Of a DNA stretch of 24,000 nt, positions 2,909 through 17,287 are shown piece by piece (the stretch's first letter is position 1; each line of letters begins with the position of its first letter). The position numbers and the translations under genes were made by a program. Origin of the DNA: Desulfosporosinus orientis DSM 765 (GTDB lineage Bacteria > Bacillota > Desulfitobacteriia > Desulfitobacteriales > Desulfitobacteriaceae); contig NC_016584.1 in NCBI RefSeq assembly GCF_000235605.1, positions 4,937,151-4,961,150 of the forward strand, read 5' to 3'. Below the pieces are notes generated by a model that was not told where the DNA came from, did no database searches, and was given only the letters and a program-made list of their open reading frames with translations.

Positions 2909-4102
2909 CTAACCGAGGAGGCGGGCAATCTCGGCAACGAGATTCTTGGCAACCTCCAGTTTGCTCATTTGAGGAAAATCTATTCTTCTTCCATCAGGAA
3001 AGAGAAAACTGACAATATTCGTCATGCTCCCGAAACCTGCACCGGGTTTAGTGACATCATTGGCCACCAGGAGATTGACATTCTTTCTCTGCATCTTTTC
3101 CTGGGCATAAGCTAAAAGATTTTCGGTTTCAGCTGCAAACCCAATTAGAACCTGGGAGGTCTTCCGGCGTCCCAGTTCAGCCAAAATATCAGGATTAGGG
3201 ACCAACTCAATGGTTCGGTTAGCTCCGTCTTTTTTAATTTTCTGCTCCGCCTGTGAGGCCGGGCGATAATCAGCCACGGCCGCCGCCTTCACCACAACAT
3301 CCAGTTTATTAAACTCAGCCAGGACGGCGTCATGCATTTCTAAAGCTGTTTGAACAGACACACGGGTAACACCCGGAGGTGTAGGCAGGTCTGTAGGCGC
3401 ACTGACCAGGATGGTTTCCGCACCTGCTTCCTGAAGGGCCTGGGCAATGGCAAAACCCATCCGCCCGGAGCTGCGGTTTCCTAAATAGCGCACGGGATCA
3501 AGAGGTTCCTGAGTTCCGCCGGCGGTTACAAGGGCACGCTTGCCCTTTAGACAAGGGGACTCCGCAAAAAATTGAACGACAGCTTCCACAATTTCTGCCG
3601 CTTCGCTCATTCGTCCTACTCCATCTGTGCCGCAGGCTTGAAAACCAACGCCTGGACCAATGATTCGCATTCCTCGTTCTTTAAGCCGGTGCAAATTTCC
3701 TTGAGTTGCAGGATTCTGGTACATGGCCTGATTCATAGCCGGCGCCACAAAAATAGGTGCTCTGGTTGCCAGAAGCACCGTGGAAAGAAAATCATCCGCC
3801 AAACCTACGGCCATTTTGGCGATGATATTAGCTGTGGCAGGTGCAACCACCACAGCATCCACATGCTCAGCTAAAGCAATATGCTCCACATTCCATAGTT
3901 TGGGCTCCGCAAACATATCCACATGCACTGGATTTGTGGATAAACTTCGCAGTGTGAGGGGGGTAATAAATTCCGTTGCCGATTTTGTCATGGCAACATG
4001 AACATCGACCTCTAACTTGCGCAAACGACTGACAACCTCAGCAATTTTGTAAGCAGCAATTCCACCTGTAACCCCTATGAGGACCTTTTTCCCTGCCAGC
4101 AT
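2909..4102 (-). CDS. coaBC: bifunctional phosphopantothenoylcysteine decarboxylase / phosphopantothenate-cysteine ligase
   Basis: 397 aa. N-terminal flavoprotein domain (GVTGGIAAYK) and C-terminal CoaB domain (GNRSSGRMG, AAAVADYRP). Conserved position after rpoZ, with a TAATG overlap. Confidence 0.95.
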   Translation of the reverse strand: MLAGKKVLIGVTGGIAAYKIAEVVSRLRKLEVDVHVAMTKSATEFITPLTLRSLSTNPVHVDMFAEPKLWNVEHIALAEHVDAVVVAPATANIIAKMAVGLADDFLSTVLLATRAPIFVAPAMNQAMYQNPATQGNLHRLKERGMRIIGPGVGFQACGTDGVGRMSEAAEIVEAVVQFFAESPCLKGKRALVTAGGTQEPLDPVRYLGNRSSGRMGFAIAQALQEAGAETILVSAPTDLPTPPGVTRVSVQTALEMHDAVLAEFNKLDVVVKAAAVADYRPASQAEQKIKKDGANRTIELVPNPDILAELGRRKTSQVLIGFAAETENLLAYAQEKMQRKNVNLLVANDVTKPGAGFGSMTNIVSFLFPDGRRIDFPQMSKLEVAKNLVAEIARLLG

Positions 4103-4308
4103 TACACGCGCTCTTCTGGATGACAGTTATAATGGATGTCTGAACGAGAGATTTCCTCCAGTGAAATGCTGACTGGTTTAACGCCTTTGGCCAAATCCTC
4201 GTGTTTTCCTTCTTCCATGATCATACGAGCACGTTTGGCAACTACGATCACTAAGGTGTATTTGCTGTCGACCTTGCTCATCAGAGTGTCGAGTGAAGGT
4301 TGTTTCAT
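4102..4308 (-). CDS. rpoZ: DNA-directed RNA polymerase subunit omega
   Basis: 68 aa with a Firmicute omega-like N-terminus (PSLDTLMSKVDSKYTLVIVVAKRAR). Classic gmk-rpoZ-coaBC synteny. 4-nt overlap with gmk. Confidence 0.9.
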   Translation of the reverse strand: MKQPSLDTLMSKVDSKYTLVIVVAKRARMIMEEGKHEDLAKGVKPVSISLEEISRSDIHYNCHPEERV

Positions 4309-4913
4309 ACAGATTCCCCCTTAAAAACAAACGGTTTTCGTTTAACACGGCATTTTTCTGCAATGAGAATACTTTTTAATTTATCGACAGCCACGGGAAC
4401 CTCATCATTGACCACGACATAATCGTATTCACTGACATATTCCAGCTCCTCTATGGCAGTGGCTAACCTTTTCTGAATCACTTCCTCCGTTTCCGTACCC
4501 CGCTTGTGAATTCTCTCAGAGAGTACATCCATTGAAGGCGGGACAATAAAAGTGAAAACTCCTTGAGGAAAGCACTTTTTAATTTGTAAAGCACCTTGAA
4601 TTTCTATCTCTAAAATGACATCCTGTCCTGCTTGGATAGCCTGTTCAACTGCGAAGCGCGGTGTTCCATAGTAATTATCACAGAACTTTGCCCATTCCAG
4701 CAGTTCATCTCTGTTAATCATGGCTTCAAATTCAGCCTTTTGTCGAAAAAAGTAATGAATTCCATCCACTTCACCAGGACGAGAAGATCTTGTTGTCATC
4801 GAGACGGAATATTTTAAGTCAGGCATCTGGCGCAGCAATTCTTGGCAAAGCGTCCCTTTGCCTGCTCCGGAAGGGCCCGACAGCACTATCAATAATCCAT
4901 GACTTTTTTCCAC
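4305..4913 (-). CDS. gmk: guanylate kinase
   Basis: 202 aa. P-loop GPSGAGKGT, a TTR..RPGE.DG..Y.F substrate motif, and synteny. Confidence 0.95.
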   Translation of the reverse strand: MEKSHGLLIVLSGPSGAGKGTLCQELLRQMPDLKYSVSMTTRSSRPGEVDGIHYFFRQKAEFEAMINRDELLEWAKFCDNYYGTPRFAVEQAIQAGQDVILEIEIQGALQIKKCFPQGVFTFIVPPSMDVLSERIHKRGTETEEVIQKRLATAIEELEYVSEYDYVVVNDEVPVAVDKLKSILIAEKCRVKRKPFVFKGESV

Positions 4914-4923
4914 AACCTCACCC

Positions 4924-5199
4924 CTAATCCACAGGGTCTTCTGCGTGGCTGCCGGACTCTTTGGCTGTAAGACGATGAGCTACGGTTTCAGGCTGAACTG
5001 CAGACAAAATCACATGATGACTATCACAAATAATTACGGCTCGTGTGCGCCGGCCATAAGTAGCATCAATAAGCATACCCGCATCACGCGCTTCTTGAAT
5101 AATACGTTTGATGGGAGCGGATTCCGGACTTACAATCGAAATAATACGATTGGCAGAAACGATATTGCCAAACCCAATGTTAATAAGTTTAATGTCCAA
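4924..5199 (-). CDS. remA: RemA/DUF370 family DNA-binding regulator of extracellular-matrix/biofilm genes
   Basis: 91 aa. The core [47 protein letters not shown] matches B. subtilis RemA (YlzA) as I recall it. Conserved position between yicC and gmk. Confidence 0.9.
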
Positions 5200-5212
5200 G
5201 ATGAATCCTCCA

Positions 5213-6091
5213 TTACTCTAAATTTTGAACTTGTTCGCGTATTTTTTCTAATTCGCTTTTGACTTTTATAACTTGCTGCCCAATCATTAGATCATTGGCC
5301 TTTGATCCTATGGTATTAATCTCCCGGTTCAATTCCTGAATTAAAAAATCAAGTTTACGCCCTACCGGTTCATTGCTCAGCAAAGCCTCCCGGCTTTGTG
5401 CCAAATGGCTGTCAAAGCGGACCAATTCTTCCGTAACGGAGGCTCTGTCTGCGAAATACGCTACTTCATTAGCCAAGCGAAGGGGATCTAACTCCACGTC
5501 CCCAAGAAGCGTCTGGATACGTTCCTGCAGGCGTTCTTGATAGTCTGTTACAACATATGGCGCACGCTCAGCAATCGTGTGCAAATAATCTCCCAGAAGA
5601 TCAATCCTTTTCATTAGATCCAGGGTTAATTTTTCACCTTCGGATCTTCTCATCTGAGCAAAACCATCAATCGCCTTCACAAGGGCCTCGGCACAGATTT
5701 TCCAGAAGGCCTCCAAATCAATTTCAGGCTCTACAACCGAAAGAACCTCGGGAAAGCCCACTAATCGGTAAATATCTGTTTCATACTCTGTATGTAGAGC
5801 TAAAGCGAGATCTTTCAATGTCTTATCATACGACAGTGCTAAATCATTGTCAACCTTCACCAATCTCTTGCGTTCTTCTGTTTCCGCCACATTGACATGT
5901 ACTTCGATCCGGCCCCTTTGAAAATTATCTTGAAGCATTTTACGTATTCGTTCTTCCACACTGTTATAGTTCCGGGGAATCCTCACGACAATTTCTAAAA
6001 AACGATGATTAACGGATTTTAACTCAATGGATACTTGATAGCCGCCTCCACTGGCCTCTCCCCGACCAAACCCAGTCATACTGATTGACAC
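5213..6091 (-). CDS. yicC: YicC/YloC family stress-induced protein (endoribonuclease family)
   Basis: 292 aa. N-terminal SMTGFGR motif and C-terminal [13 protein letters not shown] motif typical of YicC/YloC. GTG start at 6091, with an internal ATG 4 codons later as an alternative. Confidence 0.9.
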
Positions 6092-6173: not shown

Positions 6174-6209
6174 AAAAATTGCAGCAGGTAATAACCTGCT
6201 GCAATTTTA
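6174..6209 (-). terminator. rho-independent terminator of the 8399->6287 operon
   Basis: Perfect 13-bp stem AAATTGCAGCAGG (6176..6188) / CCTGCTGCAATTT (6195..6207) with a 6-nt loop. On the minus strand it is followed by TTTTTC. It lies 80 nt downstream of the stop at 6287. Confidence 0.65.
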
Positions 6210-6286: not shown

Positions 6287-7099
6287 TTAACATGTTTTAG
6301 TATTAAGATGTGGTTTTTTCCGATTATCCAGGAATATGAACAGGAAAGCAATGGCTGAACCCACCAGCAAAGCGATTAAAACCGACATATAGCCATAAAA
6401 GGGGCCATCATATATTGCCATGTCGTTTAACCATTTGACGATACCGATGGTCTCGACATCAAAGGTCTGGTCACTTGTTCCGATTACCTGCCCGTCTTTA
6501 ATAAAATAAACCGTTATATTACATTTTTCCTGAGGAATATTTGCAGGAAGCTCAAAACTGGTATTAAACTTACCATTATTAATTTGGACTCCGCTCTCGT
6601 TAATTCCATACAGTCCGCTTTCGCTGAATAAACCAACCATGGAATTCACAAATTCTTGTGCTTCAGATTTTTCTAATGTAAGAGAACCTGCATCACTATG
6701 CTTTCTGACTTCCGCCATTTGATAAACTGCCGAATAGTCTTTATCTATACCCAATTCCGCCTGCAAATCTTGTGGAAGGTCCGAAAGAGACTGGGAAGAA
6801 AGGATCCGGTACAGTTTAGGAACTTTAGTTACCGAGGTGCTTTCGACATTCATCCAAAATAAACTTACTTTTCCCTTTTTATTTAAATCTAAAATGGCAT
6901 CGTTAGGAGAGCTGACTTTGATATAAACTTGAGCATTGTCCGGTACGCTGCCGGAAATATCCAAGGCAGCGCCTTTAAAATTCAGTCCGACATTAACCTT
7001 ATCCGGTGAAACTGTAAGCTGATTCTCTGCTGCCATTCCCTGACCGGCAAAGGTCAATAAGAAAAGCATGCTTAGCAAGATTACTGCCAGCCTTCTCAT
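6287..7099 (-). CDS. exported, C-terminally membrane-anchored protein resembling TIGR02186 / PF09608 (Alph_Pro_TM) family, function unknown
   Basis: 270 aa. Signal peptide (MRRLAVILLSMLFLLTFAGQGMA|AE), a ~215-aa polar domain and a single C-terminal TM helix (YGYMSVLIALLVGSAIAFLFIFL). Motif blocks LFWMNVE and FELPANIP....ITVYFIKDG.V match my recollection of the family pattern. TAATG coupling to the TauE-like gene. Confidence 0.8.
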   Translation of the reverse strand: MRRLAVILLSMLFLLTFAGQGMAAENQLTVSPDKVNVGLNFKGAALDISGSVPDNAQVYIKVSSPNDAILDLNKKGKVSLFWMNVESTSVTKVPKLYRILSSQSLSDLPQDLQAELGIDKDYSAVYQMAEVRKHSDAGSLTLEKSEAQEFVNSMVGLFSESGLYGINESGVQINNGKFNTSFELPANIPQEKCNITVYFIKDGQVIGTSDQTFDVETIGIVKWLNDMAIYDGPFYGYMSVLIALLVGSAIAFLFIFLDNRKKPHLNTKTC

Positions 7100-8019
7100 T
7101 AATGGCCACCCCCTAGGGAAATTAATGAAGCTGGAGGAAGAACTAAATCTACCAACATTTTAAGCATAACGGCTAAAACAATCACGGAAAAAATAACCCT
7201 TAACTGTTCTGCAGGAAGCCTTTTGCCAAGCCTTGCCCCGAATTGAGCTCCAATAGAGGAACCAATTAATAAGACAATTGCCAAGACAACATCAACAGTA
7301 TGATTTAAAGAACTTTGGGCCATTGTCACGTTGATAGCTGTAAAAATAATCACAAAAACACTCGTGCCAACTGCCTTAATTGTTGGCATTCCCAATAAAT
7401 AAATCATGACCGGCAGCATAATAAATCCACCGCCAACGCCCATAAGCGCAGCAAGAATACCTATTAGTAAACCCAGCAAGAATAGAGAGATAACAGAACA
7501 ATGAATACCGGATACCTCAAAATGCATTTTAATAGGCAGCTTATTCATAAACTGCATTGCTTTATTTTCTTTAGGTGTTTCATCAATTTCTTTTGTTTTT
7601 TTCCTTAGAGAATTGATACTCTCGATAAACATAAAGGAGCCTACACATAGCAGCATCACTACATAAGTGGATTTTAGCACAAAGTCGAAGTTGCCAAGGG
7701 AGCGCAGAACTTTAACAAGAGCTGTCCCAAAACTGCCGCCCACTAAACTCCCGACGAGAATAATGAAGCCAAGTTTAAAGTCAACATTCTTATTGCGGCT
7801 ATGGGCAATGGTTCCGGAAACAGAAGCCGCCACAATTTGGTTCGTATCGGAAGCTACTGCTACAGCAGGCGGTATCCCCATCCACATCAAAAGGGGGGTT
7901 AATAAGAATCCTCCTCCCACTCCGAAAAGTCCGGACAGCAATCCAACCAAACCACCCATGCCTAGAATAGCAAATATCGAAATTGGCATTCTGGCAATAG
8001 GGAAGAAAATGTCCATCAT
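7099..8019 (-). CDS. TauE/SafE (DUF81) family anion permease
   Basis: 306 aa. Two 4-TM halves rich in G/L/V (GLLSGLFGVGGGFLLTPLL and AALMGVGGGFIMLPVMIYLLG repeats) are separated by a ~40-aa charged loop, which is typical TauE/SafE architecture. ATGATG/TGA overlap with the upstream gene. Confidence 0.9.
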   Translation of the reverse strand: MMDIFFPIARMPISIFAILGMGGLVGLLSGLFGVGGGFLLTPLLMWMGIPPAVAVASDTNQIVAASVSGTIAHSRNKNVDFKLGFIILVGSLVGGSFGTALVKVLRSLGNFDFVLKSTYVVMLLCVGSFMFIESINSLRKKTKEIDETPKENKAMQFMNKLPIKMHFEVSGIHCSVISLFLLGLLIGILAALMGVGGGFIMLPVMIYLLGMPTIKAVGTSVFVIIFTAINVTMAQSSLNHTVDVVLAIVLLIGSSIGAQFGARLGKRLPAEQLRVIFSVIVLAVMLKMLVDLVLPPASLISLGGGH

Positions 8020-8399
8020 TCTCCCCCCTTATATTGCAGGTACAGTGCTTCATATTTGGGAATCAGAGTTTTCGTATAAACTTTAATGCCAAATCTTTGT
8101 ACCCCTATGCCTAAGAGCATGGTTAATAACAATAATCCCGTTGAACCCCAGGTGAAATTATTGACTTGTGCATCTTCAGGGGTATAAACATTGCCTTGGG
8201 CATCTTGCCAGGAATATATTTCTTTAGTGTCTTGATTTTGACTAACGATAACATGTTTATTGGGATTGTAATAATGAGTAAACACTTCTGACCTAAGAAA
8301 ATTCAGGCCACCCCAGAAAAAAAGAACTGATAAAATTAACACTGCAAAACTTAATTTAACACTAAATTTCCCTAACTTTTTTTTGCTGATCTCTGTCAT
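8016..8399 (-). CDS. small 2-TM membrane protein, no recognised family
   Basis: 127 aa. Strong RBS (GGGGAGG 7 nt before the ATG at 8399). Two hydrophobic helices flank a ~50-aa polar loop. First gene of the translationally coupled three-gene operon. Confidence 0.75.
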   Translation of the reverse strand: MTEISKKKLGKFSVKLSFAVLILSVLFFWGGLNFLRSEVFTHYYNPNKHVIVSQNQDTKEIYSWQDAQGNVYTPEDAQVNNFTWGSTGLLLLTMLLGIGVQRFGIKVYTKTLIPKYEALYLQYKGGE

Positions 8400-8613
8400 G
8401 GTTTATTCCTCCCCAAACGTATTTTCTGGTAAAATCGTTGAAATAGTAAAAACCTATGATGGAACGTAAATCAAGATATAAACAAAAAGGTTTTTGTTGA
8501 TTATGCCGTGCGTTTCCTCTTAATGAATGACATCTATCCCTGTTTTGATAAAACACCACCTCCGAGTGTGAGTAATTCCCGCTTAACTATTTGCTTTATG
8601 TATAAAGAATATA

Positions 8614-8629
8614 AGCAAAATCAATGCCA
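8614..8629 (-). promoter_or_regulatory. sigma-54 (-24/-12) promoter of the 8399->6287 membrane operon
   Basis: The minus strand reads TGGCATTGATTTTGCT. The GG and GC doublets are spaced exactly as in the consensus TGGCAC-N5-TTGCW. It sits just downstream of the RR-gene terminator and ~215 nt upstream of the ATG at 8399. The neighbouring gene encodes a sigma-54 activator, and a near-identical copy lies at 12089..12104. Confidence 0.65.
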
Positions 8630-8664
8630 TGTTTATAGATAACCTATCATCCCCGATTTAAGGG

Positions 8665-8704
8665 CAAAAACAAAACCGGCAACTCTTCAAGTTGCCGGTT
8701 TTGG
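8665..8704 (-). terminator. rho-independent terminator of the HK-RR operon
   Basis: Stem AAAACCGGCAAC (8672..8683) / GTTGCCGGTTTT (8691..8702). On the minus strand it is followed by TTTTGTTTTTG. It lies 45 nt downstream of the RR stop codon. Confidence 0.7.
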
Positions 8705-8722
8705 GAACTTTTCTTCCCATTC

Positions 8723-8743
8723 AATGAGCATAATTTGCTCATT
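8723..8743. promoter_or_regulatory. inverted repeat AATGAGC-N7-GCTCATT, candidate enhancer (UAS) for the sigma-54 activator
   Basis: Perfect 7-bp arms centred ~105 bp upstream of the -24 GG of the 8614..8629 promoter, which is the usual UAS distance. It lies immediately after the RR stop, so it could also be a simple RNA hairpin. Confidence 0.3.
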
Positions 8744-8745
8744 TG

Positions 8746-10131
8746 CTACAAAAGATCATATTCTTTCATCTTTGCATAAAGGGATCGTCGATTTAAGCCC
8801 AAGGTATTGGCTGAATCTTGTCTATTCCAGTTGTGGTCTCTTAATGTTTTGACAATCACCTGTTTTTCCACCTCAGCCAGGATATCTTTAAGGGGCCGCT
8901 TTAGTCTTAGGGTTAGATTAAGTTCTGAGTCTGAGTTTTGAAAGGGTTGAGGATTTCCATCAAAAATACCAAGATCATCCGGCAAAATAACGGCCCCTCT
9001 GGCCATGACAACCGCTTGCTCACAGGTATTTTTTAATTCTCTTACATTACCTGGCCATGAGTAATTAAGCATGAGCTTTAATGCTTCTTTAGATATACTG
9101 GTAATTCTTTTGGCATGCTTTAAAGCAAATCGATTAATAAAGTAATTGGCTAAAGGGGTAATATCTTCTTTTCTCTCCTTGAGAGGGGGAAGCTTGATAT
9201 TAACAACGTTCAGTCGATAAAATAGATCCTCTCTGAATTTTCCTTCCTCAACTAACTTTTGTAACTCTTTATTAGTAGCTGCCAGAATGCGGATATCCAC
9301 CTTAATACTATTAATTCCTCCAACTCGTTCAAACTCCCGCTCCTGCAGCACACGGAGAAGTTTGGTTTGAGCCTGGTGGGTTAATTCTCCGATCTCATCA
9401 AGAAAAATTGTCCCACTGTGAGCAAGTTCAAATTTACCCAGTTTCTGAGTAATGGCTCCTGTGAAGGCTCCTTTTTCATGCCCAAACAATTCGCTTTCCA
9501 TCAGATTTTCCGGAATGGTGGCACAATTAATTTTTATATAGGGACAATGACTTCGTTTACTGTTTTTATGAATGGATTGGGCAACCACTTCTTTGCCTGT
9601 TCCGCTCTCACCTTGAATTAAGACGGTTATATCACTATCCGATATTCTGCCAATGGTTTTAGAAATCTCCTGCATGATTCTGGATTCCCCAATAAAGTTA
9701 TCCGATTGATTCAGATCATCTTCTAACTTTTCACGAAGGGTAGCAACCTCAGAGACAAGATTCTTCATCCTTACGGCTTTCTGAACGGACAAAATGAGTT
9801 CGTCCAGGTTGAGGGGTTTATTAAGGTAGTCATGAGCCCCTTCCTTCATAGCTTGTATAGCTATTTCAGTGGTACCAAAGGCAGTCATCAAAATGACAGG
9901 TACACTAACTCCAATATCTTTAATTCGTTCCATAACTTTGATGCCATCATCATCAGGAAGCTTAATATCTAAGAGAATAGTATCAGGATTAAAATTATCT
10001 AAAGCCTCCATTCCCTCTGCCGCCGTATAGGTCACATAAACTTCATACCCCGCACTTTCCAGAACATCACGCAGCAGTTCACAGACGCCCTCTTCATCGT
10101 CAATTACCAGAACTCTAGCCATTCTTGTCAC
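8746..10131 (-). CDS. sigma-54-dependent response regulator (NtrC/AtoC/ZraR class enhancer-binding protein)
   Basis: 461 aa. REC domain (VLVIDDE...LLDIKLPDDDG). AAA+ domain with Walker A GESGTGKE, ESELFGHEKGAFTGA (GAFTGA loop) and Walker B TIFLDEIGEL. C-terminal Fis-type HTH (ANTLGLNRRSLYAKMKEY). Confidence 0.95.
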   Translation of the reverse strand: MTRMARVLVIDDEEGVCELLRDVLESAGYEVYVTYTAAEGMEALDNFNPDTILLDIKLPDDDGIKVMERIKDIGVSVPVILMTAFGTTEIAIQAMKEGAHDYLNKPLNLDELILSVQKAVRMKNLVSEVATLREKLEDDLNQSDNFIGESRIMQEISKTIGRISDSDITVLIQGESGTGKEVVAQSIHKNSKRSHCPYIKINCATIPENLMESELFGHEKGAFTGAITQKLGKFELAHSGTIFLDEIGELTHQAQTKLLRVLQEREFERVGGINSIKVDIRILAATNKELQKLVEEGKFREDLFYRLNVVNIKLPPLKERKEDITPLANYFINRFALKHAKRITSISKEALKLMLNYSWPGNVRELKNTCEQAVVMARGAVILPDDLGIFDGNPQPFQNSDSELNLTLRLKRPLKDILAEVEKQVIVKTLRDHNWNRQDSANTLGLNRRSLYAKMKEYDLL

Positions 10132-11950
10132 CCCTCTCAGCTATTGGTAAATAGATTGTCATGATTGTACCTACATTAACAGTGCTTTCAACTTCATAGA
10201 AACCCTTATGAGCTTCGATAATTTCCCGGGCAATCGCCAAACCTAAACCGGTACCTTTTGATTTGGTCGTGAAAAATGGTTCAAAAACCTTTCCTAAATT
10301 TTCTTCTGAAATACCACAGCCGTTATCTTTAATGGACACTCCAACCATATTTTTTTCTTCGTCATAAAAGGTTGTTGTCTCTAATTTACCCTTTCCTTGG
10401 GTTGATTGAAAAGCATTATACATAATGTTTGAGAGAACTTTCTCAATCTGATGCTCATCCATGATCACATCCGGAAGTTCATCTTCATACTTCGCAGCAA
10501 ATTCTATCTTATCCCCATGGGCATCGCCTAAAAACTGAACCACTCTTCTTACCAGGCTGTTAATGGCACAGGGCTGCATCGTAGCCCGGGAAGGGCGGGC
10601 AAATTGTAATAATTCATCTGTGATCGTCGCCAAGCGGGTCATTTCCCTGTTCACGATGTTTAATGATTTTTGCGATGGGACATGTCCCTGGTTCCAGAAC
10701 TGCATATACCCGGTAATTGAGGTTAAAGGACTTCTAATTTCATGAGCAACTCCGGCAATAATCTTTCCTAATGATGCAAATCTCTCCTGCCGATTGATAT
10801 CTTCCCTCAAGCGAACCATTTCTGTGATATCGCGGAAGTGTAAGAGCGCCCCCACAAGGTCCTGACGTACATTTACCATTAGAGATGTGCTGATCAGCAA
10901 ATGGAGGTGACTGCCCGGCGAATCCTGGTAGAAAACCTGTATATCTTTTACAGGCTTATTTTGAAGAAGAGTATTCTTGACGCAATCGATAAAGGGACTA
11001 TCCTCCGGAAAAATATCCTGCATAGTTAATCCTAAATAATCCTTACTAAGATTGAGCATATGACAGGCAGCGTGATTGATGCTCACAAGCTTTTGTTCTT
11101 TATTAACCGTAATTATTCCGTCATCAATGCTGGTTAAGATTTCTTGGTTATAGTTTTGAACATCAATTAGCTTATTGTACATTTGGTTGATGGCATCCGT
11201 AATCTCCCCAAGTTCTCCCGGCGCCCTCGGGATAATATAGGTAGGATCATTGGATATTGTGGTCAGATTCCGCTTAACTTCATTAACACTCCCGGCAAAT
11301 TTTCGAACCAGACTGATTGTCCCGCCAAGAGCAAACAAAATCCCTAAAGTAATAATTCCATAAACAATTTGTTTCATATTATCAATCTTTTGAGATATGG
11401 GTTTAAAATCCGAACTAGCCCAGACAGCACCAATTGTTATACCGTCCCTAATAATGGGCCGATAGGCTTCCAGTTGTCCATTTTCGGTTATACCGCCAAA
11501 AACCTGAAAGACCATATTCTTAGTCTCAAGGGCATCCTCAAAATTATTCTTTCTTCGCTTGGAAAAGTTTTCTCGTAAATGAACATTATCTCCATCTAAA
11601 ATGACGTCATAATCTTTCCAGTAATATCCTAAATCCAAATTTGGGTATTCTCTCTTTGCTTCAACTATAATAGGTTGTAAGGATTTGTTGAGAGCCTTAG
11701 CTTGATCCCTTTGGGTCATATTCCCAGCCCCAATATCCTCAATCATTTTATTAAAGGTTCCGTTTAAATTTTCATCCAGATAGGTCATAGCCGTTTCCAT
11801 AGCCTTACGCTGATTATCAATCAGGCCCAGTTCAGTGGAATGTACCAGATAATAGAGATATCCCGCCAGCCCTATGGGTATCAACAACAGAAGAGCAATG
11901 ATTTTTAGCAAGTGATCAATGAATCCATCATGGACAATCCTTATCCTCAT
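10115..11950 (-). CDS. membrane sensor histidine kinase (extracytoplasmic Cache/PAS-like sensor, HAMP, PAS, HisKA, HATPase_c)
   Basis: 611 aa. TM1 (~res 15-35) and TM2 (~res 195-215) bracket a ~155-aa external domain, followed by a HAMP-like linker and a PAS domain (ILTSIDDGIITVN). H-box AHEIRSPL, N/G boxes (DNGCGI, GTGLGLAIA). 17-nt overlap with the RR gene. GGAGGAG RBS 6 nt before the ATG. Confidence 0.93.
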   Translation of the reverse strand: MRIRIVHDGFIDHLLKIIALLLLIPIGLAGYLYYLVHSTELGLIDNQRKAMETAMTYLDENLNGTFNKMIEDIGAGNMTQRDQAKALNKSLQPIIVEAKREYPNLDLGYYWKDYDVILDGDNVHLRENFSKRRKNNFEDALETKNMVFQVFGGITENGQLEAYRPIIRDGITIGAVWASSDFKPISQKIDNMKQIVYGIITLGILFALGGTISLVRKFAGSVNEVKRNLTTISNDPTYIIPRAPGELGEITDAINQMYNKLIDVQNYNQEILTSIDDGIITVNKEQKLVSINHAACHMLNLSKDYLGLTMQDIFPEDSPFIDCVKNTLLQNKPVKDIQVFYQDSPGSHLHLLISTSLMVNVRQDLVGALLHFRDITEMVRLREDINRQERFASLGKIIAGVAHEIRSPLTSITGYMQFWNQGHVPSQKSLNIVNREMTRLATITDELLQFARPSRATMQPCAINSLVRRVVQFLGDAHGDKIEFAAKYEDELPDVIMDEHQIEKVLSNIMYNAFQSTQGKGKLETTTFYDEEKNMVGVSIKDNGCGISEENLGKVFEPFFTTKSKGTGLGLAIAREIIEAHKGFYEVESTVNVGTIMTIYLPIAERGDKNG

Positions 11951-11996
11951 AATAATCTCCTCCGATTATCAGCCTGCCTATCTCTATTATACATAG

Positions 11997-12018
11997 AATT
12001 CATCCTTTGATGAGAATT
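11997..12018. promoter_or_regulatory. imperfect inverted repeat AATTCATC-CTTT-GATGAGAATT, candidate UAS / autoregulatory site
   Basis: The core TCATC-N4-GATGA is perfect, and the outer AATTC/GAATT arms are offset by 2 nt. It is centred ~83 bp upstream of the -24 GG at 12090 and ~55 bp upstream of the HK start. It shares the half-site ATGAG with the repeat at 8723..8743. Confidence 0.25.
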
Positions 12019-12088
12019 TTTTTTCACATTCTACGAGTAAATTTTGCCCATTTAAATTTCCTTTCTTGATTATAAAGCCCTTTACAGA

Positions 12089-12104
12089 TGGCATGGTTTT
12101 TGCT
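12089..12104 (+). promoter_or_regulatory. sigma-54 (-24/-12) promoter of the CBS-pair gene pair
   Basis: The plus strand reads TGGCATGGTTTTTGCT with consensus GG/GC spacing, ~52 nt upstream of the ATG at 12156. It is 17/20 identical to the promoter at 8611..8630 on the other side of the HK-RR genes. Confidence 0.65.
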
Positions 12105-12155
12105 TAATATCTTATAAATGGAAAATTCAAGCGACTTAGAAAGAGGCTCATCTTT

Positions 12156-12626
12156 ATGAAAATCACTCTTGGCCAAATCATGGTTCCTCTAGATGAATAC
12201 CCCATTGTTTCAGAAGAAGAGTCCCTTGAAAAGGCCATAGAGTTATTGACGGAAGAATTTAAGCAAAGGGATAACCGCTGGCATAATTTTGAAGCTGTAC
12301 TAACCACCAACTCTGAGGGCGAGATTACCGGAATGCTTACCCTGCGATTTGCCTTAGATGCTGTTCGGGAACTAAAATTCCCAAGTCTCCGTCATAGACT
12401 GGCAGAGCTCTTCGCTGAGGAGCCCGTAAAGAGAAGCCCGCTTCAGGTTAAAGACATCCTACATCCCTTGAAAAGCAGATTAATTGATATTTCTGTCGAG
12501 TTAGATGAAGCCATTGCTTTTCTTTTAAAGCATAATCTAAACTCCATTCTGGTTGCGAAAAACCAACAAATTGTCGGTGTCGTCCGAACCATGGATTTAT
12601 TCTGGTATATTGGCGATGTTTTATAA
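12156..12626 (+). CDS. stand-alone CBS-pair (Bateman domain) protein
   Basis: 156 aa with two CBS-like repeats (IMVPLDEYPIV...ITGMLT and VKDILHPL...IVGVVRTMDLF). RBS AAGAGG upstream. Confidence 0.85.
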   Translation: MKITLGQIMVPLDEYPIVSEEESLEKAIELLTEEFKQRDNRWHNFEAVLTTNSEGEITGMLTLRFALDAVRELKFPSLRHRLAELFAEEPVKRSPLQVKDILHPLKSRLIDISVELDEAIAFLLKHNLNSILVAKNQQIVGVVRTMDLFWYIGDVL

Positions 12627-12644
12627 AATACGGAGGGATGTTCG

Positions 12645-13268
12645 ATGACTCCAACCTACTTATGTCACAACATCATGATACCTATAGATCATTTTCTGAC
12701 CATCAACCAATACGACTCAGTGCGTGAAGCCTTAAAGTTAATGAGAGAATCCTTTCATCAAGAGTCTGCCTGGCAAGGTCCTCAAGTCTTAATTGTTGTG
12801 GATAATCACCAAAAGCCTGTTGGACTTCTGACCCTGAAATGTTTGCTCAAATCCTCTCAGCTAAAGCAATTACAAGAAAGCACATACTTTAAGTCTGAAT
12901 GCGTCAGTTGGCATTATATTAATAAATGTCAAAAATCAGGAATTGCCGTCAGAGAACTCATGCGGCCGATTCACTGTTTCTTCTTTGATTATCATCATTT
13001 TGACATCATAACTGCTGCGGCGGTATTCACCCGCAACGGTATAAACTATATACCAGTTCTTAAGAATCATGAGCTGATTGGCATCATTAATAAATCCAAA
13101 CTTTTCTACGAATTACAGTTCTTAAATACCACCTCTCCCAAGAGCCTTAGGGCATTTGATTCACTGTCCAGAAATTTAAAGGACATAAAAAGCAGTATGT
13201 CTATGCTTTTTGCCGGTATCTTTCCGTCGGATATCAGAAAACTTGATAAGCGGCTGCCCAAGTTTTGA
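12645..13268 (+). CDS. stand-alone CBS-pair protein with a ~50-aa C-terminal extension (paralog of the upstream gene)
   Basis: 207 aa. CBS-like repeats (IMIPIDHFLTI...PVGLLT and VRELMRPI...LIGIINKSKLF) are colinear with the upstream protein. GGAGGG RBS 7 nt before the ATG. 18-nt spacer from the upstream gene. Confidence 0.8.
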   Translation: MTPTYLCHNIMIPIDHFLTINQYDSVREALKLMRESFHQESAWQGPQVLIVVDNHQKPVGLLTLKCLLKSSQLKQLQESTYFKSECVSWHYINKCQKSGIAVRELMRPIHCFFFDYHHFDIITAAAVFTRNGINYIPVLKNHELIGIINKSKLFYELQFLNTTSPKSLRAFDSLSRNLKDIKSSMSMLFAGIFPSDIRKLDKRLPKF

Positions 13269-13368
13269 CCCCCATGCCGCGGCACCGGCAGATGATGTGA
13301 AAAGGGGCCGTGTTCTAGGTCGGGCAGCTTCGCCATATCCGTGCAAGATAGTAGCAATAAAATAGCAT

Positions 13369-13407
13369 AAAAAAACCGGCCGGAATTATCATCCGACCGG
13401 TCTTTTT
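13369..13407 (-). terminator. rho-independent terminator (strong for dapF; probably bidirectional for the CBS genes)
   Basis: Arms ACCGGCCGGA (13375..13384) / TCCGACCGGT (13392..13401). In the minus-strand RNA the stem is 10 bp with one G-U, followed by TTTTTTTT. In the plus-strand RNA it has a C-A mismatch, followed by CTTTTT. Confidence 0.7.
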
Positions 13408-13417
13408 ATGCACACTC

Positions 13418-14263
13418 TTATAGTCCCAGCCATTCCCCTTTAAAGGCATAAGCTGCCGGGCCTGTCATGTAGACATGATTATCTGCTCCCCACTCGATGA
13501 ATAGGTCCCCCCCCGGCAAATGAACGGTAACCTTCCGCTCCGTCTTATGATTAAGGACTGAGGCAACTACTGAAGCACAGGCACCTGTACCACAGGCCAG
13601 TGTAGGGCCAGCTCCCCGTTCCCATACTTTCATGGTTATCTCCTGGGGAGAATTAATCTGAATAAACTCCACATTGGTTTTACGGGGAAATAGTGAATGC
13701 TTTTCAATGGCGGGGCCAACCCTGTCAAAATCAAGAGTGGCATAATCCTCGACAAAAATGATACAGTGAGGATTCCCCATGGAGACCGCCGTATATAAGT
13801 ATGTTTCACCTAATGCTTCAATGGACCGGCCAATAACCGGTTCTCCTTCTCCCAACACAGGAATAAGCTCAGCTTTCAAAACAGGCTCACCCATGTCAAC
13901 TTGAACACCTTGAACTTGCCCATCTTTGATAAACAGCTTAGGTTTTAAAATCCCTGCCCCGGTTTCCACCAGCATAGAGTCAGAAACAACAATCCCTTGA
14001 TCATATAAATACCTGGCAAAACAGCGTATACCATTGCCGCACATTTCAGGTTCCGAGCCATCAGAATTAAAGATCCGCATCCTGGCGTCGGCAACTTTTG
14101 AAGGAAGTATCACCACCAGCCCATCCCCGCCTATGCCAAAGCGGCGGTGGCAAAGCTTTTCCGCCAGTTCCGAATAGTTGGCGTTCCCCTCTTCACCAGA
14201 ATCCGACATTTGATCTAAGAAAATAAAATCATTTCCCAAACCATGCATTTTAATAAATTCCAT
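13418..14263 (-). CDS. dapF: diaminopimelate epimerase
   Basis: 281 aa. N-terminal F.KMHGLGNDFI motif and both catalytic-cysteine motifs (MCGNGIRC and ACGTGACA). Confidence 0.95.
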   Translation of the reverse strand: MEFIKMHGLGNDFIFLDQMSDSGEEGNANYSELAEKLCHRRFGIGGDGLVVILPSKVADARMRIFNSDGSEPEMCGNGIRCFARYLYDQGIVVSDSMLVETGAGILKPKLFIKDGQVQGVQVDMGEPVLKAELIPVLGEGEPVIGRSIEALGETYLYTAVSMGNPHCIIFVEDYATLDFDRVGPAIEKHSLFPRKTNVEFIQINSPQEITMKVWERGAGPTLACGTGACASVVASVLNHKTERKVTVHLPGGDLFIEWGADNHVYMTGPAAYAFKGEWLGL

Positions 14264-14348
14264 GGATTCTCCCCCAAATCAATGTTCGATATTCGAGATT
14301 TATTGTTCAAAGCCAGTTTTGAATATCAAACTTACTCTTCTGGATAAA

Positions 14349-14377
14349 AGAATACTACGCCAGTTAAATTGGGTCAA
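14349..14377 (-). promoter_or_regulatory. candidate sigma-A promoter for dapF
   Basis: The minus strand reads TTGACC (14377..14372), a 17-nt spacer, then TATTCT (14354..14349), ~85 nt upstream of the dapF ATG. Sequence match only. Confidence 0.3.
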
Positions 14378-14405
14378 CGGGCAGACTGGTTAACCTCAAA
14401 ATTAC

Positions 14406-17144
14406 TTATCCTTTGGCAATAACCGTTTTTCCCTGCCAACTGTTCTTTACAAGCCGGGCAAATCCTATCAAAACGGAAGGTCCCCCTGCCACACAGAGAA
14501 TGAGAATCCACTGCCAGCCTGCCAGGGATGTGGTTTTAAAAATTGTCTGCAAGGGTGGTATATAAATCACAGAAAGCTGCATGATGGTGGAAACACAAAC
14601 GGCACCGACAAGATAGAGATTGGTAAAAAGCCCTACTTCAAAGATGCCTCGTTCTTCAGACCTACAGTCAAAGACATGGAATAATTGGGAAAATACCAGG
14701 GTAGAAAAGGCCATGGTTCGAGCCCCTAACATATTAACTCCCATAAACAAAGCTGCAACGAAGACGAAAAGTGTACCCAAGCCAATAAAGGTCCCCCTGA
14801 TAGCAATTTTTGACGCTAACCCCCGGGCAAAGATACTTTCACCCGGTTTCCTGGGCGGACGATTCATGATTCCCGGTTCTGACCCATCCACCCCTAAAGC
14901 CATGGCCGGCAATCCATCCGTTACTAAATTCACCCATAATATTTGAATGGGAAGCAGGGGCAGGGGTAAGCCTACCAAAGCCGCCAAAAACATGGTTAAA
15001 ACTTCTCCTAGATTACAGGACAGCAAGTAGCGGATAAATTTCCGGATGTTGTCGTAAATCCCCCGGCCTTCCTCCACAGCTGCCACAATAGTAGCGAAAT
15101 TATCATCTCCCAAAACCATAGATGAAGCTTCTTTAGTGACATCTGTCCCGGTCTTGCCCATTGCCACACCAATGTCTGCTTCTTTAACCGCAGGAGCATC
15201 ATTAACACCGTCTCCGGTCATGGCAACCACTTGCCCCTGCTTTTTAAAGGCTCGCACAATTCTAAGCTTATCTTTTGGAGTCACCCGGGCAAAAACTGAC
15301 AGATCCATGATGCGCTCACTTAAATCCTGATCCGATGTTTTTTCCAATTCCGCTCCCGTAATCACTCCGCCGCCTTGTCCCCGGATGATCCCTAATTCAT
15401 GGGCTACAGCCTCTGCCGTTAAGCGATGATCCCCCGTGATCATAACCGGCTTAATTCCAGCCTGGCGGCAGACCCGAATTGCTTTGACAGCACTGGCCCG
15501 GGGCGGGTCAATCATCCCCAGCAGCCCAACAAAGGTTAAACCTTGTTCCACCTTTTCATCCAGAGGTTCGGAGTCGGCCAGGGGTTTTTCAGCCACCGCC
15601 AGAACTCGCAGAGCATGTCTGGCCATTTCATCATTGGCACGCATAATGTTTTTCTTACGTTCTGAAGACAGCTCGCCAACTCCCTGCCCTGTCAGTTCCC
15701 GCTGGCAAAGTCGCAGCACCGTATCCGGGGCTCCCTTGACATAGGCTTTACGTCCTTGCTTTGTTTCGTAAACAACACTCATCCGCTTGCGATCAGAATC
15801 GAAAGGCAGCTCCCCAATTCTCTTTTGTTTCCGCTCCAAAACCTCCCGCCATATTCCCGCCTTAGCAGCGGCTACCAAAATAGCCCCTTCTGTCGGATCT
15901 CCTTCAATACCCCAAGGTGATTCCTTTCCCTTGGAGCGAAAAAGCCCCGCAACCTGCACTCCTTTCTTCGTTAAGGCAGAGTTATTGCACAGTGCCCCAA
16001 TTTTTAAGGCGGAATTGAGAGGATCCCGTTCTTTTTCCGGATCGGCGCCCCTGAATTCTCCCTTAGGATCATACCCTTCTCCGGAAACGGAAATCCTTCT
16101 GCCATCGGAATAAATCTGCCGCACGGTCATTTCATTTTGAGTTAAAGTCCCTGTTTTATCGGAACAAATAACCGTTGCACACCCCAAAGTTTCTACAGCC
16201 GGTAATTTGCGAATAATGGCTTGACGCTTAACCATACGCTGGACTCCAATGGCTAAAGCCACTGTGACAATAGCGGGCAGACCCTCCGGAATAGCTGCTA
16301 CCGCTAAGGATACCCCTGTGAAAAACATCTTATAGAAATCCTCACCTCTAAGAATTCCCGTGACAACCACTGCTACGCAAACAAGGAGACTAATTAAAAC
16401 CAGCCATTTGCCCAATTCCGCCAAACGCTTCTGCAAAGGGGTTTCTTCATCTTCCACACTTTGAATCATTCCTGCAATAACGCCCATCTCTGTATCCATT
16501 CCTGTCGCCACTACGACCCCGGCGCCCCGCCCATTGACAATGGAGGTTCCCATGTAACCCATATTCTGCCGGTCAGCCATAGGCGTAAACTCGTCATGAA
16601 GAGGGGCAATGCTTTTGCTGACAGGGTGAGATTCTCCTGTTAAAGCAGACTCTTCTACTTGAATGTTCACAGCTTGAATCCAGCGAACATCTGCCGGAAT
16701 GCGGTCTCCCGTATCTAAAAGCACAATATCTCCCGGCACCAAGTCCGCAGCAGGTATCTTCTGTTCCACCCCTTCCCGCAGCACTCGTGCTTCCGGAGCC
16801 GTCAGGGAACGCAAGGATTCCATGGAACGTTCTGCTCGAAACTCCTGAACAAAACCCAAAACCGCATTAATAATTAAGATTGCTAAAATGGTTATGGCAT
16901 CTGCTATTTCTCCCAATAGTCCGGAGACCACTGTAGCTGCCAGCAGAACTAATACCATAAAGTCTTTAAATTGTCCGAGGAACAAAAAGACCGGATTTGT
17001 CCCCTTCTTTACCGCCAGGACATTCCTGCCAACCTCCTGCAGTCGACGCCGAACCTCTTTGACACTTAGTCCTTTCCCCGGATGTACGTCCAACGCCTTG
17101 GCCACGTCAAGCCAAGGCAGCACATGCCACGCCTGTTGCCGCAT
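14406..17144 (-). CDS. yloB: P-type Ca2+-transporting ATPase (SERCA/PMCA-like, YloB-type)
   Basis: Motifs LTGES, phosphorylation site CSDKTGTLTQNEM, IPEGLPAIVT (type IIA Ca2+ site), MITGDH and TGDGVNDAPA. I place the start at the ATG at 17144 (GGAGG 8 nt upstream) rather than the ORF-track 17201. Position next to rqcH (yloA) matches B. subtilis. Confidence 0.93.
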   Translation of the reverse strand: MRQQAWHVLPWLDVAKALDVHPGKGLSVKEVRRRLQEVGRNVLAVKKGTNPVFLFLGQFKDFMVLVLLAATVVSGLLGEIADAITILAILIINAVLGFVQEFRAERSMESLRSLTAPEARVLREGVEQKIPAADLVPGDIVLLDTGDRIPADVRWIQAVNIQVEESALTGESHPVSKSIAPLHDEFTPMADRQNMGYMGTSIVNGRGAGVVVATGMDTEMGVIAGMIQSVEDEETPLQKRLAELGKWLVLISLLVCVAVVVTGILRGEDFYKMFFTGVSLAVAAIPEGLPAIVTVALAIGVQRMVKRQAIIRKLPAVETLGCATVICSDKTGTLTQNEMTVRQIYSDGRRISVSGEGYDPKGEFRGADPEKERDPLNSALKIGALCNNSALTKKGVQVAGLFRSKGKESPWGIEGDPTEGAILVAAAKAGIWREVLERKQKRIGELPFDSDRKRMSVVYETKQGRKAYVKGAPDTVLRLCQRELTGQGVGELSSERKKNIMRANDEMARHALRVLAVAEKPLADSEPLDEKVEQGLTFVGLLGMIDPPRASAVKAIRVCRQAGIKPVMITGDHRLTAEAVAHELGIIRGQGGGVITGAELEKTSDQDLSERIMDLSVFARVTPKDKLRIVRAFKKQGQVVAMTGDGVNDAPAVKEADIGVAMGKTGTDVTKEASSMVLGDDNFATIVAAVEEGRGIYDNIRKFIRYLLSCNLGEVLTMFLAALVGLPLPLLPIQILWVNLVTDGLPAMALGVDGSEPGIMNRPPRKPGESIFARGLASKIAIRGTFIGLGTLFVFVAALFMGVNMLGARTMAFSTLVFSQLFHVFDCRSEERGIFEVGLFTNLYLVGAVCVSTIMQLSVIYIPPLQTIFKTTSLAGWQWILILCVAGGPSVLIGFARLVKNSWQGKTVIAKG

Positions 17145-17287
17145 GCCCCTTTCCTCCTTTTGCTTTATACCCTTAATAGCTTGGACCCTTTTGTAGTACA
17201 TGCTTATTCCAAAACCTTGAGAAAAATGCCTCTGCCCAACAAGTGTGTTATACTAAAAAGCGATTCCAATCTGAAAGGATGTTATCC

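Follow-up and report, generated by a model that had tools for sequence, protein, structure and literature searches.

How do sulfate-reducing bacteria move sulfite, thiosulfate and sulfate across the membrane, and which of their many TSUP permeases take part? Sulfate reducers are rich in TSUP proteins, for which a role in sulfur-anion transport has been proposed without proof; the substrates of these proteins are poorly defined, and the membrane passage of these anions is an open question (PMC5840216). Here we analyse a seven-gene module that touches this question, in a 24-kb stretch of DNA from Desulfosporosinus orientis DSM 765 (hereafter the window, meaning the whole stretch). Three genes encode membrane proteins: a small protein with two membrane helices, a TSUP permease of the TauE/SafE type (TauE) and a PF09608 protein, the last 100% identical to a protein of D. 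orientis DSM 765. Next to them lie the genes for a response regulator and a sensor kinase, followed by two genes for stand-alone CBS-pair proteins, CBS1 and CBS2 (Table 1). Reading from sequence and its conservation, we consider the module to be, more likely than not, a conserved AtoS/AtoC-type sigma-54 two-component regulon, the output of which would be an inducible TSUP transport complex with cytoplasmic CBS partners. The type of circuit is familiar, its variant with this uncharacterised effector is new, and the module offers a tractable way into TSUP permease function in sulfate reducers.

All seven open reading frames called in a first-pass annotation of this DNA are present where it placed them, and the GESGTGKE, GAFTGA and HEIRSPL motifs that it read are found in the translations. 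A Pfam search returned the families that it forecast (PF09608, PF01925, REC/Sigma54_activat/HTH_8, PAS/HisKA/HATPase_c and CBS). The small and TauE genes overlap by 4 nt, the TauE stop codon and the PF09608 start codon by 1 nt, and the kinase and regulator genes by 17 nt. To follow the module into other genomes, we scanned one genome per species with an alignment of the PF09608 protein as the query, and added two further genome loci by identical-protein look-up. The scan recovered 12 loci, all of them from Desulfotomaculia/Peptococcaceae-type Bacillota. By translated search, the complete module was found in 12 of 14 non-redundant related loci, in the order CBS2←CBS1, kinase→regulator, small→TauE→PF09608, and the neighbourhood check proposed with the first-pass annotation therefore came out in its favour. 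Most of the 12 seven-gene loci, which are counted at the species level and share the same order and orientation, lie outside Desulfosporosinus. Desulfurispora keeps all seven genes between flanking genes that are unrelated to those of D. orientis.

The two outer operons are each preceded by a predicted sigma-54 promoter. Across the window, the consensus TGGCAY-N5-TTGCW has two exact matches where 0.13 are expected, a count reached in 1 of 100 shuffles; both are intergenic and face outward, toward the genes that they precede. These are the two -24/-12 promoters that had been annotated, placed as claimed; they are the only exact matches in the window and are kept in the orthologous loci. With relaxed matches counted, each of the 13 seven-gene loci (the window and 12 others) has a sigma-54 promoter 5′ of the small gene, and loci L017–L021 have a match as well. 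A candidate 5′ of the first CBS gene occurs in 12 of the 13, the exception being L001, with L011 and L016 included by the relaxed pattern. An identity of 17/20 between the two D. orientis promoters had also been reported, and holds solely in a 20-nt frame that begins two bases before the TGG. When one mismatch is allowed, the window holds three matches against 2.05 expected, which is the rate of chance, and could be taken to mean that the two promoters are accidents and the seven genes mere neighbours. We find this barely credible given the excess of exact matches, their intergenic position and correct orientation, their positional conservation with paired activator sites 5′, and the retention of gene order in the different genomic context of Desulfurispora; on conservation in orthologous loci, we reject chance promoters. 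The one-mismatch site TGGCAGTAATCTTGCT (7074–7089, minus strand), inside the start of the PF09608 gene and on the strand of the operon, fits chance.

Alignment of the orthologous upstream regions brought to light an element not noted in the first-pass annotation: 5′ of each sigma-54 promoter is a pair of 17-bp palindromes that approximate TGGGCA-N5-TGCCCA. With a match defined as at least 9 of 12 positions, palindrome density across 13 loci is 5.1 per kb within the two intergenic regions, as against 0.45 per kb in the remaining sequence, a difference of about 11-fold. The centres of a pair are always 22–23 bp apart, and the pairs are centred about 73–130 nt 5′ of the predicted starts. On the transporter side, the pair begins 5 nt past the regulator stop codon and lies upstream of the terminator of the kinase–regulator operon. 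Footprint and enrichment together predict that the paired palindromes are likely to be activator binding sites, and the gene for an activator with the GAFTGA motif lies between the two sigma-54 promoters. Gene order, both promoters and the paired palindromes are all conserved, and the proposal that the seven genes form one module stands.

The kinase–regulator pair is, by homology, of the AtoS/AtoC type. The kinase passes the NCBIfam AtoS model NF008468 (669.5 bits against a cut-off of 646, residues 7–609) and is colinear with Escherichia coli K-12 AtoS at 27% identity, outer domain included, the two sharing one architecture. It has two membrane helices that flank an outer domain of about 157 amino acids, followed by a HAMP-like linker, PAS, HisKA (H403) and HATPase domains. 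In the earlier account of this architecture, PAS, HisKA and HATPase_c are borne out by Pfam, and HAMP is found only as a sub-threshold match (16 bits, where the cut-off is 25). Over the full length, the regulator and E. coli AtoC, each of 461 amino acids, share 45% identity. The regulator has the features of the NtrC class: a REC domain with D55, an AAA+ domain with GESGTGKE and GAFTGA (with AAA_lid_14 as well) and HTH_8. H403 aligns with the AtoS phospho-acceptor, and the regulator D55 with D55 of AtoC. The likeness to E. coli extends to layout, where atoS and atoC are followed by palindromes just past the atoC stop codon, a sigma-54 promoter and a target operon, atoDAEB, that includes a transporter. 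The D. orientis module differs in its targets, which are the small–TauE–PF09608 operon and two CBS genes rather than acetoacetate catabolism, in a second, divergent sigma-54 promoter, in the spacer of the binding site (5 nt, against 6 nt in E. coli, read from sequence) and in the score of the regulator, which falls below the cut-off of the AtoC model NF008469 (519.7 bits against 714). Neither the window nor any of the orthologous loci yielded an ato-type gene.

This homology raises an alternative for the inducing signal. The system might respond, like E. coli AtoSC, to an external short-chain organic acid that resembles acetoacetate, with the TauE complex carrying a non-sulfur organic anion. 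The alignment with AtoS does run through the outer sensor domain, AtoE, encoded in the E. coli operon, is a transporter of short-chain fatty acids, and the loose definition of TSUP substrates (PMC5840216) leaves room for such a cargo. We nevertheless judge this alternative unlikely. The first 240 residues of the kinase, its sensor region, are just 19% identical to AtoS, and the signal therefore need not be acetoacetate; the regulator scores below the AtoC cut-off; none of the loci has linked catabolic genes, whether of the ato type or any other; and the sole expression datum for a TauE–PF09608 pair concerns thiosulfate (PMC13490349).

The regulatory circuit, from AtoS-type kinase to AtoC-type regulator to paired sites at two sigma-54 promoters, is thus predicted and well supported by sequence and conservation. 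We hypothesize that the kinase detects an outside signal through its outer domain and phosphorylates the regulator at D55. The phosphorylated regulator would then bind the paired palindromes, two helical turns apart, 5′ of each -24/-12 promoter, and spend ATP to open the sigma-54 promoter complexes. One transcript would give rise to all three membrane proteins, with the small two-helix protein and the PF09608 protein acting as subunits of the TauE permease; the other would encode the two CBS-pair proteins, a putative nucleotide- or metabolite-sensing partner of the transporter. A TATAAT between kinase and CBS1, which reads ATTATA on the plus strand, is retained by 11 of the 12 loci displayed and is likely to be the -10 box of a sigma-70 promoter that would serve the kinase–regulator operon. 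The nearer of the CBS-side activator sites is predicted to be centred at about -40 relative to this promoter and would overlie its -35 region, and autoregulation is therefore possible. The sigma factor itself is present: a study of Clostridiales sigma-54 regulons credits D. orientis with rpoN (Desor_5473) and 35 sigma-54 activators, a handful of which are response regulators (PMC6615313). In the text accessible to us, that study lists the response-regulator activators of D. orientis and gives no reconstructed regulon for them (PMC6615313).

Within the module, conservation is highest for TauE, which has 66–92% identity across the genome loci and 58–60% identity to Desulfobacterota-like homologues and matches PF01925 over model positions 2–237 of 237 (178.6 bits against a gathering threshold of 32.6). 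The PF09608 (Alph_Pro_TM) protein had been labelled as TIGR02186/PF09608-like. The PF09608 half of that label is secure (168.8 bits against a cut-off of 24.5); TIGR02186, an alphaproteobacterial group, is reached with 74.3 bits only, below the cut-off of 255.25, and the D. orientis protein is, by these scores, a distant subfamily relative to TIGR02186. An AlphaFold2 model (pLDDT 82) gives it a signal peptide, then an outer domain rich in beta-strand and, at the C terminus, a membrane helix that would serve as an anchor. The small protein places its two helices around a strongly conserved outer loop, FTHYYNPxKHVIVxQNPDTKEIYAWKDxxGNVYTPED. It has no Pfam or NCBIfam match and 18 relatives among 1.84 billion representative proteins; it was found in all Bacillota genome loci examined, and was absent from the Desulfobacterota-like loci and from most metagenome loci.

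In every related locus with upstream sequence present, TauE lies directly 5′ of PF09608, a pairing already mirrored in a database name. From this invariant adjacency, together with translational coupling and conserved outer domains, we infer that the three membrane proteins form one transport complex, and we read the PF09608 and small proteins as permease subunits because their conserved domains would lie on the outer face of the membrane. To our knowledge, characterised TSUP members act alone, and a multi-subunit TSUP transporter has not been described before; the invariable adjacency of TauE and PF09608 suggests that part of the family works as one. Our literature search returned no paper that mentions PF09608, Alph_Pro_TM or TIGR02186, and none that links TauE with Peptococcaceae genera. 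The D. orientis permease shares PF01925, a family linked to sulfur-containing anions (PMC5840216), with the characterised permeases TauE and SafE (export of sulfite or sulfoacetate) and TsaS (uptake of 4-toluenesulfonate). It differs from them in its pairing with PF09608 and, in Bacillota, with the small protein as well.

The pairing extends well beyond Bacillota. A metagenome scan added 52 loci at 22–40% identity, annotated with profiles that we built in this analysis, and most of those with enough upstream sequence carry a divergent kinase–activator pair. Because the metagenome and genome loci share this arrangement, a TauE–PF09608 core with adjacent kinase and activator genes is widespread, and the co-occurrence with activator genes that the first-pass annotation proposed to check is seen in most loci with enough flank. 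In the metagenome loci, Usp lies directly 3′ of PF09608 in most cases, with a CBS gene after Usp in several; in two Desulfobacterota-like loci, a divergent activator–kinase–regulator group faces TauE–PF09608–Usp–CBS. This TauE–PF09608–Usp(–CBS) cassette resembles the D. orientis module in its core, in the adjacent kinase and sigma-54-type activator, and in the CBS genes of several loci. It differs in that Usp replaces or joins CBS, the small protein is missing and the kinases are cytoplasmic PAS types; some of its activators lack REC or have EAFTGA, with a sigma-70-like promoter before TauE. Relative to these distant loci, D. orientis stands out for its membrane-bound AtoS-type kinase, for the small protein common to the Bacillota loci and for a separate, divergent operon of two CBS genes. 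CLC-type channel genes with fused CBS domains adjoin the TauE–PF09608 cassette in two unrelated lineages (L020, 11991–13733; L021, 4543–6414).

These associations admit a further alternative, that the module is a stress or ion-homeostasis system, for acid, anion or envelope stress, rather than a transporter of a nutrient or electron acceptor. Usp follows TauE–PF09608 in most distant loci, CLC–CBS channels are adjacent in L020 and L021, thioredoxin-like and DsbD-type genes stand beside the Desulfurispora module, and the Desulfovibrio vulgaris DVU3305 regulon is annotated with general stress response and transport (PMC4641369). Such associations vary from locus to locus, however, and the D. orientis locus has neither Usp nor CLC genes. 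Usp and CBS proteins are, moreover, generic regulatory partners of many transporters. We therefore regard a stress role as doubtful and prefer a transporter that is induced from outside.

What such a transporter would carry is suggested by three lines of information. Characterised members of the family handle sulfur anions; the named organisms with the closest TauE homologues are almost all reducers of sulfate, sulfite or thiosulfate; and during thiosulfate disproportionation Dissulfuribacter thermophilus contains more of a TauE protein, and of the membrane protein that co-occurs with it, than on hydrogen plus sulfite (log2 fold change 1.6–1.8 for both; PMC13490349). On this basis our favoured guess, and a weak one, is that the substrate is an external sulfur oxyanion or sulfonate, for example thiosulfate or sulfite. 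A bolder version holds that TauE, PF09608 and the small protein constitute a previously unrecognised multi-subunit class of TSUP transporter that moves a respiratory sulfur oxyanion (thiosulfate, sulfite or sulfate) in sulfate-reducing bacteria, with an AtoS-like sensor of the external anion to induce it and a CBS1/CBS2 heterodimer that gates transport from the cytoplasmic side in response to an adenosyl metabolite of sulfate reduction, for example AMP or adenosine phosphosulfate. We consider it a long shot; if true, it would fill one of the gaps among the sulfur-anion transporters known from sulfate reducers.

The CBS operon encodes two proteins that had been described as paralogous, and they are: both match PF00571 (CBS1 with 37.4 bits in one Pfam stretch, CBS2 with 47.9 bits in two), and CBS1 aligns with CBS2 over both halves at 21% identity (E 8e-15), as distant paralogues. 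CBS2 has a C-terminal tail of about 50 amino acids. CBS1 orthologues occur in 12 of 12 seven-gene loci, and the second motif of CBS1 reads GVVRTMD, where the adenosyl-ligand motif of CBS pairs is G-h-h-T/S-x-x-D. Searches of PDB sequences with TauE, CBS1 and CBS2 gave nothing useful, the only hit for the CBS proteins being one unnamed CBS protein (E 2e-5). Stand-alone CBS-pair regulators act on partner proteins, as do CbpB, which binds c-di-AMP, and the CBSX proteins of plants. The D. orientis proteins are likewise small and have one CBS pair each; they differ in matching none of these regulators in sequence, in occurring as two paralogues and in the absence of ligand-binding aspartates from CBS2. 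We propose that they serve the transporter, because other phyla have a CBS gene within the TauE–PF09608 operon and most distant loci have Usp in the corresponding place; this is support from gene linkage only.

Several points weigh against the reading that we prefer, a sensor-controlled transporter with CBS partners, all of which is built on sequence. CBS2 and its orthologues lack the usual adenosine-binding aspartate in both motifs. The outer domain of the PF09608 model had no informative structural match, with no PDB match at E<1e-3, and a profile of ten kinase outer-domain sequences matched no Pfam family and no PDB sequence. The substrate guess leans, weakly, on a family name, one proteomic correlation from another phylum and a taxonomic pattern confounded by relatedness, and the AtoS homology could equally point to an organic acid. 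Finally, loci L014 and L015, which keep small–TauE–PF09608 and lack the kinase and regulator, also lack the CBS genes, and the CBS proteins could therefore belong to the signalling side.

That last point supports an alternative in which the regulon is as described and the CBS proteins are feedback modulators of the kinase or activator instead of partners of the transporter. The CBS genes have their own promoter outside the transporter operon, CBS2 weakly matches the CBS region of the activator PrdR, and many one-component sigma-54 activators of these organisms have N-terminal CBS-CBS-PAS sensor modules (PMC6615313). Against this, a CBS gene lies inside the TauE–PF09608–Usp operon in Desulfobacterota-like loci (L019, L020, L026, L028 and L035), and Ammonifex (L021), with the order small–TauE–PF09608–kinase–regulator–Usp, has kinase, regulator and transporter without a stand-alone CBS gene; the co-absence argument, moreover, comes from two loci only. 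We hold a signalling role for the CBS proteins to be possible, if not likely, and continue to favour the transporter as their partner.

The first-pass annotation knew of no described system of this composition, which overstates the novelty, since the regulatory genes are AtoS/AtoC homologues in an atoSC–atoDAEB layout and TSUP regulons have a precedent in D. vulgaris (PMC4641369). In that organism, nine sigma-54 operons encode TSUP or PSE transporters without an assigned substrate; DVU0110 and DVUA0057 bind 5′ of DVU0132 (TSUP)–DVU0133 (hypothetical membrane protein), and DVU3305 binds 5′ of, and controls, the sigma-54-dependent TSUP–Usp operon DVU3302–3298 (PMC4641369). These regulons resemble the D. 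orientis module in having response-regulator activators on palindromes 5′ of sigma-54 promoters, TSUP permeases with hypothetical membrane proteins (one with Usp) and, in one case, a long leader (-232); they differ in phylum and in motif (TGTTGCA-N3-TGCAACA), and no CBS operon or small two-helix protein is reported for them (PMC4641369). Even if its function proves mundane, the locus is a clean case of an AtoSC-type circuit re-used on new targets. A delimited regulon with a predicted operator, two promoters suited to reporters and an outward-facing sensor also lends itself to an inducer screen, which could reveal the substrate.

Table 1. Positions of the genes and predicted regulatory elements of the module, numbered from the first letter of the window
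Feature	Position	Strand	Details
Transporter-operon terminator	6175-6208	-	perfect 15-bp stem then T-run; dG -22.8 kcal/mol, z -7.6
PF09608 protein gene	6287-7099	-	270 aa; Pfam PF09608
TauE/SafE permease gene	7099-8019	-	306 aa; Pfam PF01925
Small two-helix protein gene	8016-8399	-	127 aa; Pfam: none
Transporter-operon leader, ~215 nt	8400-8613	-	alignment of 13 orthologous leaders
Transporter-operon -24/-12 promoter (predicted)	8614-8629	-	TGGCATTGATTTTGCT; exact consensus match
Kinase–regulator-operon terminator, between activator sites and promoter	8671-8703	-	dG -23.1 kcal/mol, z -5.9
Transporter-promoter paired sites (candidate)	8702-8741	.	TGAGCAAATTATGCTCA 8725-8741 and TGGGAAGAAAAGTTCCCA 8702-8719; centres 22.5 bp apart
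Response regulator gene	8746-10131	-	461 aa; Pfam REC, Sigma54_activat, AAA_lid_14, HTH_8
Sensor kinase gene	10115-11950	-	611 aa; Pfam PAS, HisKA, HATPase_c
TATAAT -10 box, likely sigma-70-type promoter of kinase–regulator operon	11986-11991	-	conservation
CBS-promoter paired sites (candidate)	12011-12050	.	TGAGAATTTTTTTTCACA 12011-12028 (degenerate) and CGAGTAAATTTTGCCCA 12034-12050
CBS-operon -24/-12 promoter (predicted)	12089-12104	+	TGGCATGGTTTTTGCT; exact consensus match
First CBS gene (CBS1)	12156-12626	+	156 aa; Pfam CBS
Second CBS gene (CBS2)	12645-13268	+	207 aa; Pfam CBS
Bidirectional terminator, CBS operon and converging dapF	13365-13411	.	dG -24.2 kcal/mol plus, -35.6 kcal/mol minus

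All three terminator hairpins in Table 1 fold far better than shuffled sequence. The claim that a terminator closes both outer units is sound, with the refinement that the plus-side hairpin lies about 100 nt past CBS2, is bidirectional and is common to dapF. The first-pass annotation did not include the activator sites, the long leader of the transporter operon or the terminator that separates the regulator gene from the minus-side promoter. Within the leader is a conserved Shine–Dalgarno-like GGAGGTGGTG (8554–8563, minus strand), downstream of a degenerate TTCAC repeat (8564–8573). The direct repeat TTCACT(T/A)TCACA occupies the same leader position in L001, L008–L013 and L016, and is degenerate in Desulfosporosinus; 3–15 nt past it lies a perfect Shine–Dalgarno-like GG(A/G)GGTG(G/A)TG, with no conserved open reading frame after it. 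This element may stabilise the mRNA by binding ribosomes, or it may be a second operator. A leader peptide was considered and rejected, as a 65-amino-acid open reading frame at 8362–8559 is not kept in the orthologues and no leader reading frame is conserved. An Rfam scan of the whole window gave no match, and the leader is therefore not a known RNA element.

A second, paralogous module of D. orientis lies on a Logan-assembly contig (L017), which encodes a kinase, a regulator, the small protein, TauE (64% identical) and PF09608, with a YbjQ-like gene after them. This module has a sigma-54 promoter of its own, TGGCATGGAAATTGCA; on the contig, which is cut off upstream of the kinase gene, nothing matches the TGGGCA-N5-TGCCCA palindrome, and the two systems thus look insulated from each other. 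In Pelotomaculum (L018), a small-like gene and a CBS gene lie upstream of kinase–regulator–small–TauE–PF09608. This second copy of the small protein (3959–4378; 44% identity over 81 amino acids) is directly 5′ of the CBS gene, which connects the family of small proteins with CBS in addition to TauE. An exact 16-mer, TTGTGAAACGYTCGAC, is absent from the window and occurs in 3 of 74 loci (L014, 8389–8404; L015, 8447–8462; L018, 3778–3793), always 5′ of an operon that has a small-protein gene first and lacks a sigma-54 promoter: small–TauE–PF09608, with neither kinase nor regulator, in L014 and L015, small-like plus CBS in Pelotomaculum. Its distribution suggests an alternative regulator for the same function.

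In many TauE–PF09608–Usp loci (L038, L046, L050, L054, L055, L063, L066, L071 and similar), EAFTGA replaces GAFTGA in the activator. These loci have a conserved sigma-70-like TTGACA-N17/18-CATACT 5′ of TauE and no -24/-12 element, together with TGCTGCA-N3-TGCAACG motifs that resemble the published binding motif of DVU3305. The EAFTGA activators may be a family that acts at sigma-70 promoters.

For the kinase outer domain, a single-sequence AlphaFold2 model reached a pLDDT of 39. The GC content of the module, 0.37–0.43, is a little lower than that of its flanks. These hold housekeeping genes (window positions 4305–6091 and 13418–17201), with gmk, remA and yicC at one end of the module and dapF and the gene for a P-type cation ATPase at the other. 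Desulfosporosinus meridiei (L003/L004) has the same neighbours as D. orientis, and Desulfurispora (L001) has others, with thioredoxin-like and DsbD-type genes adjoining its module.

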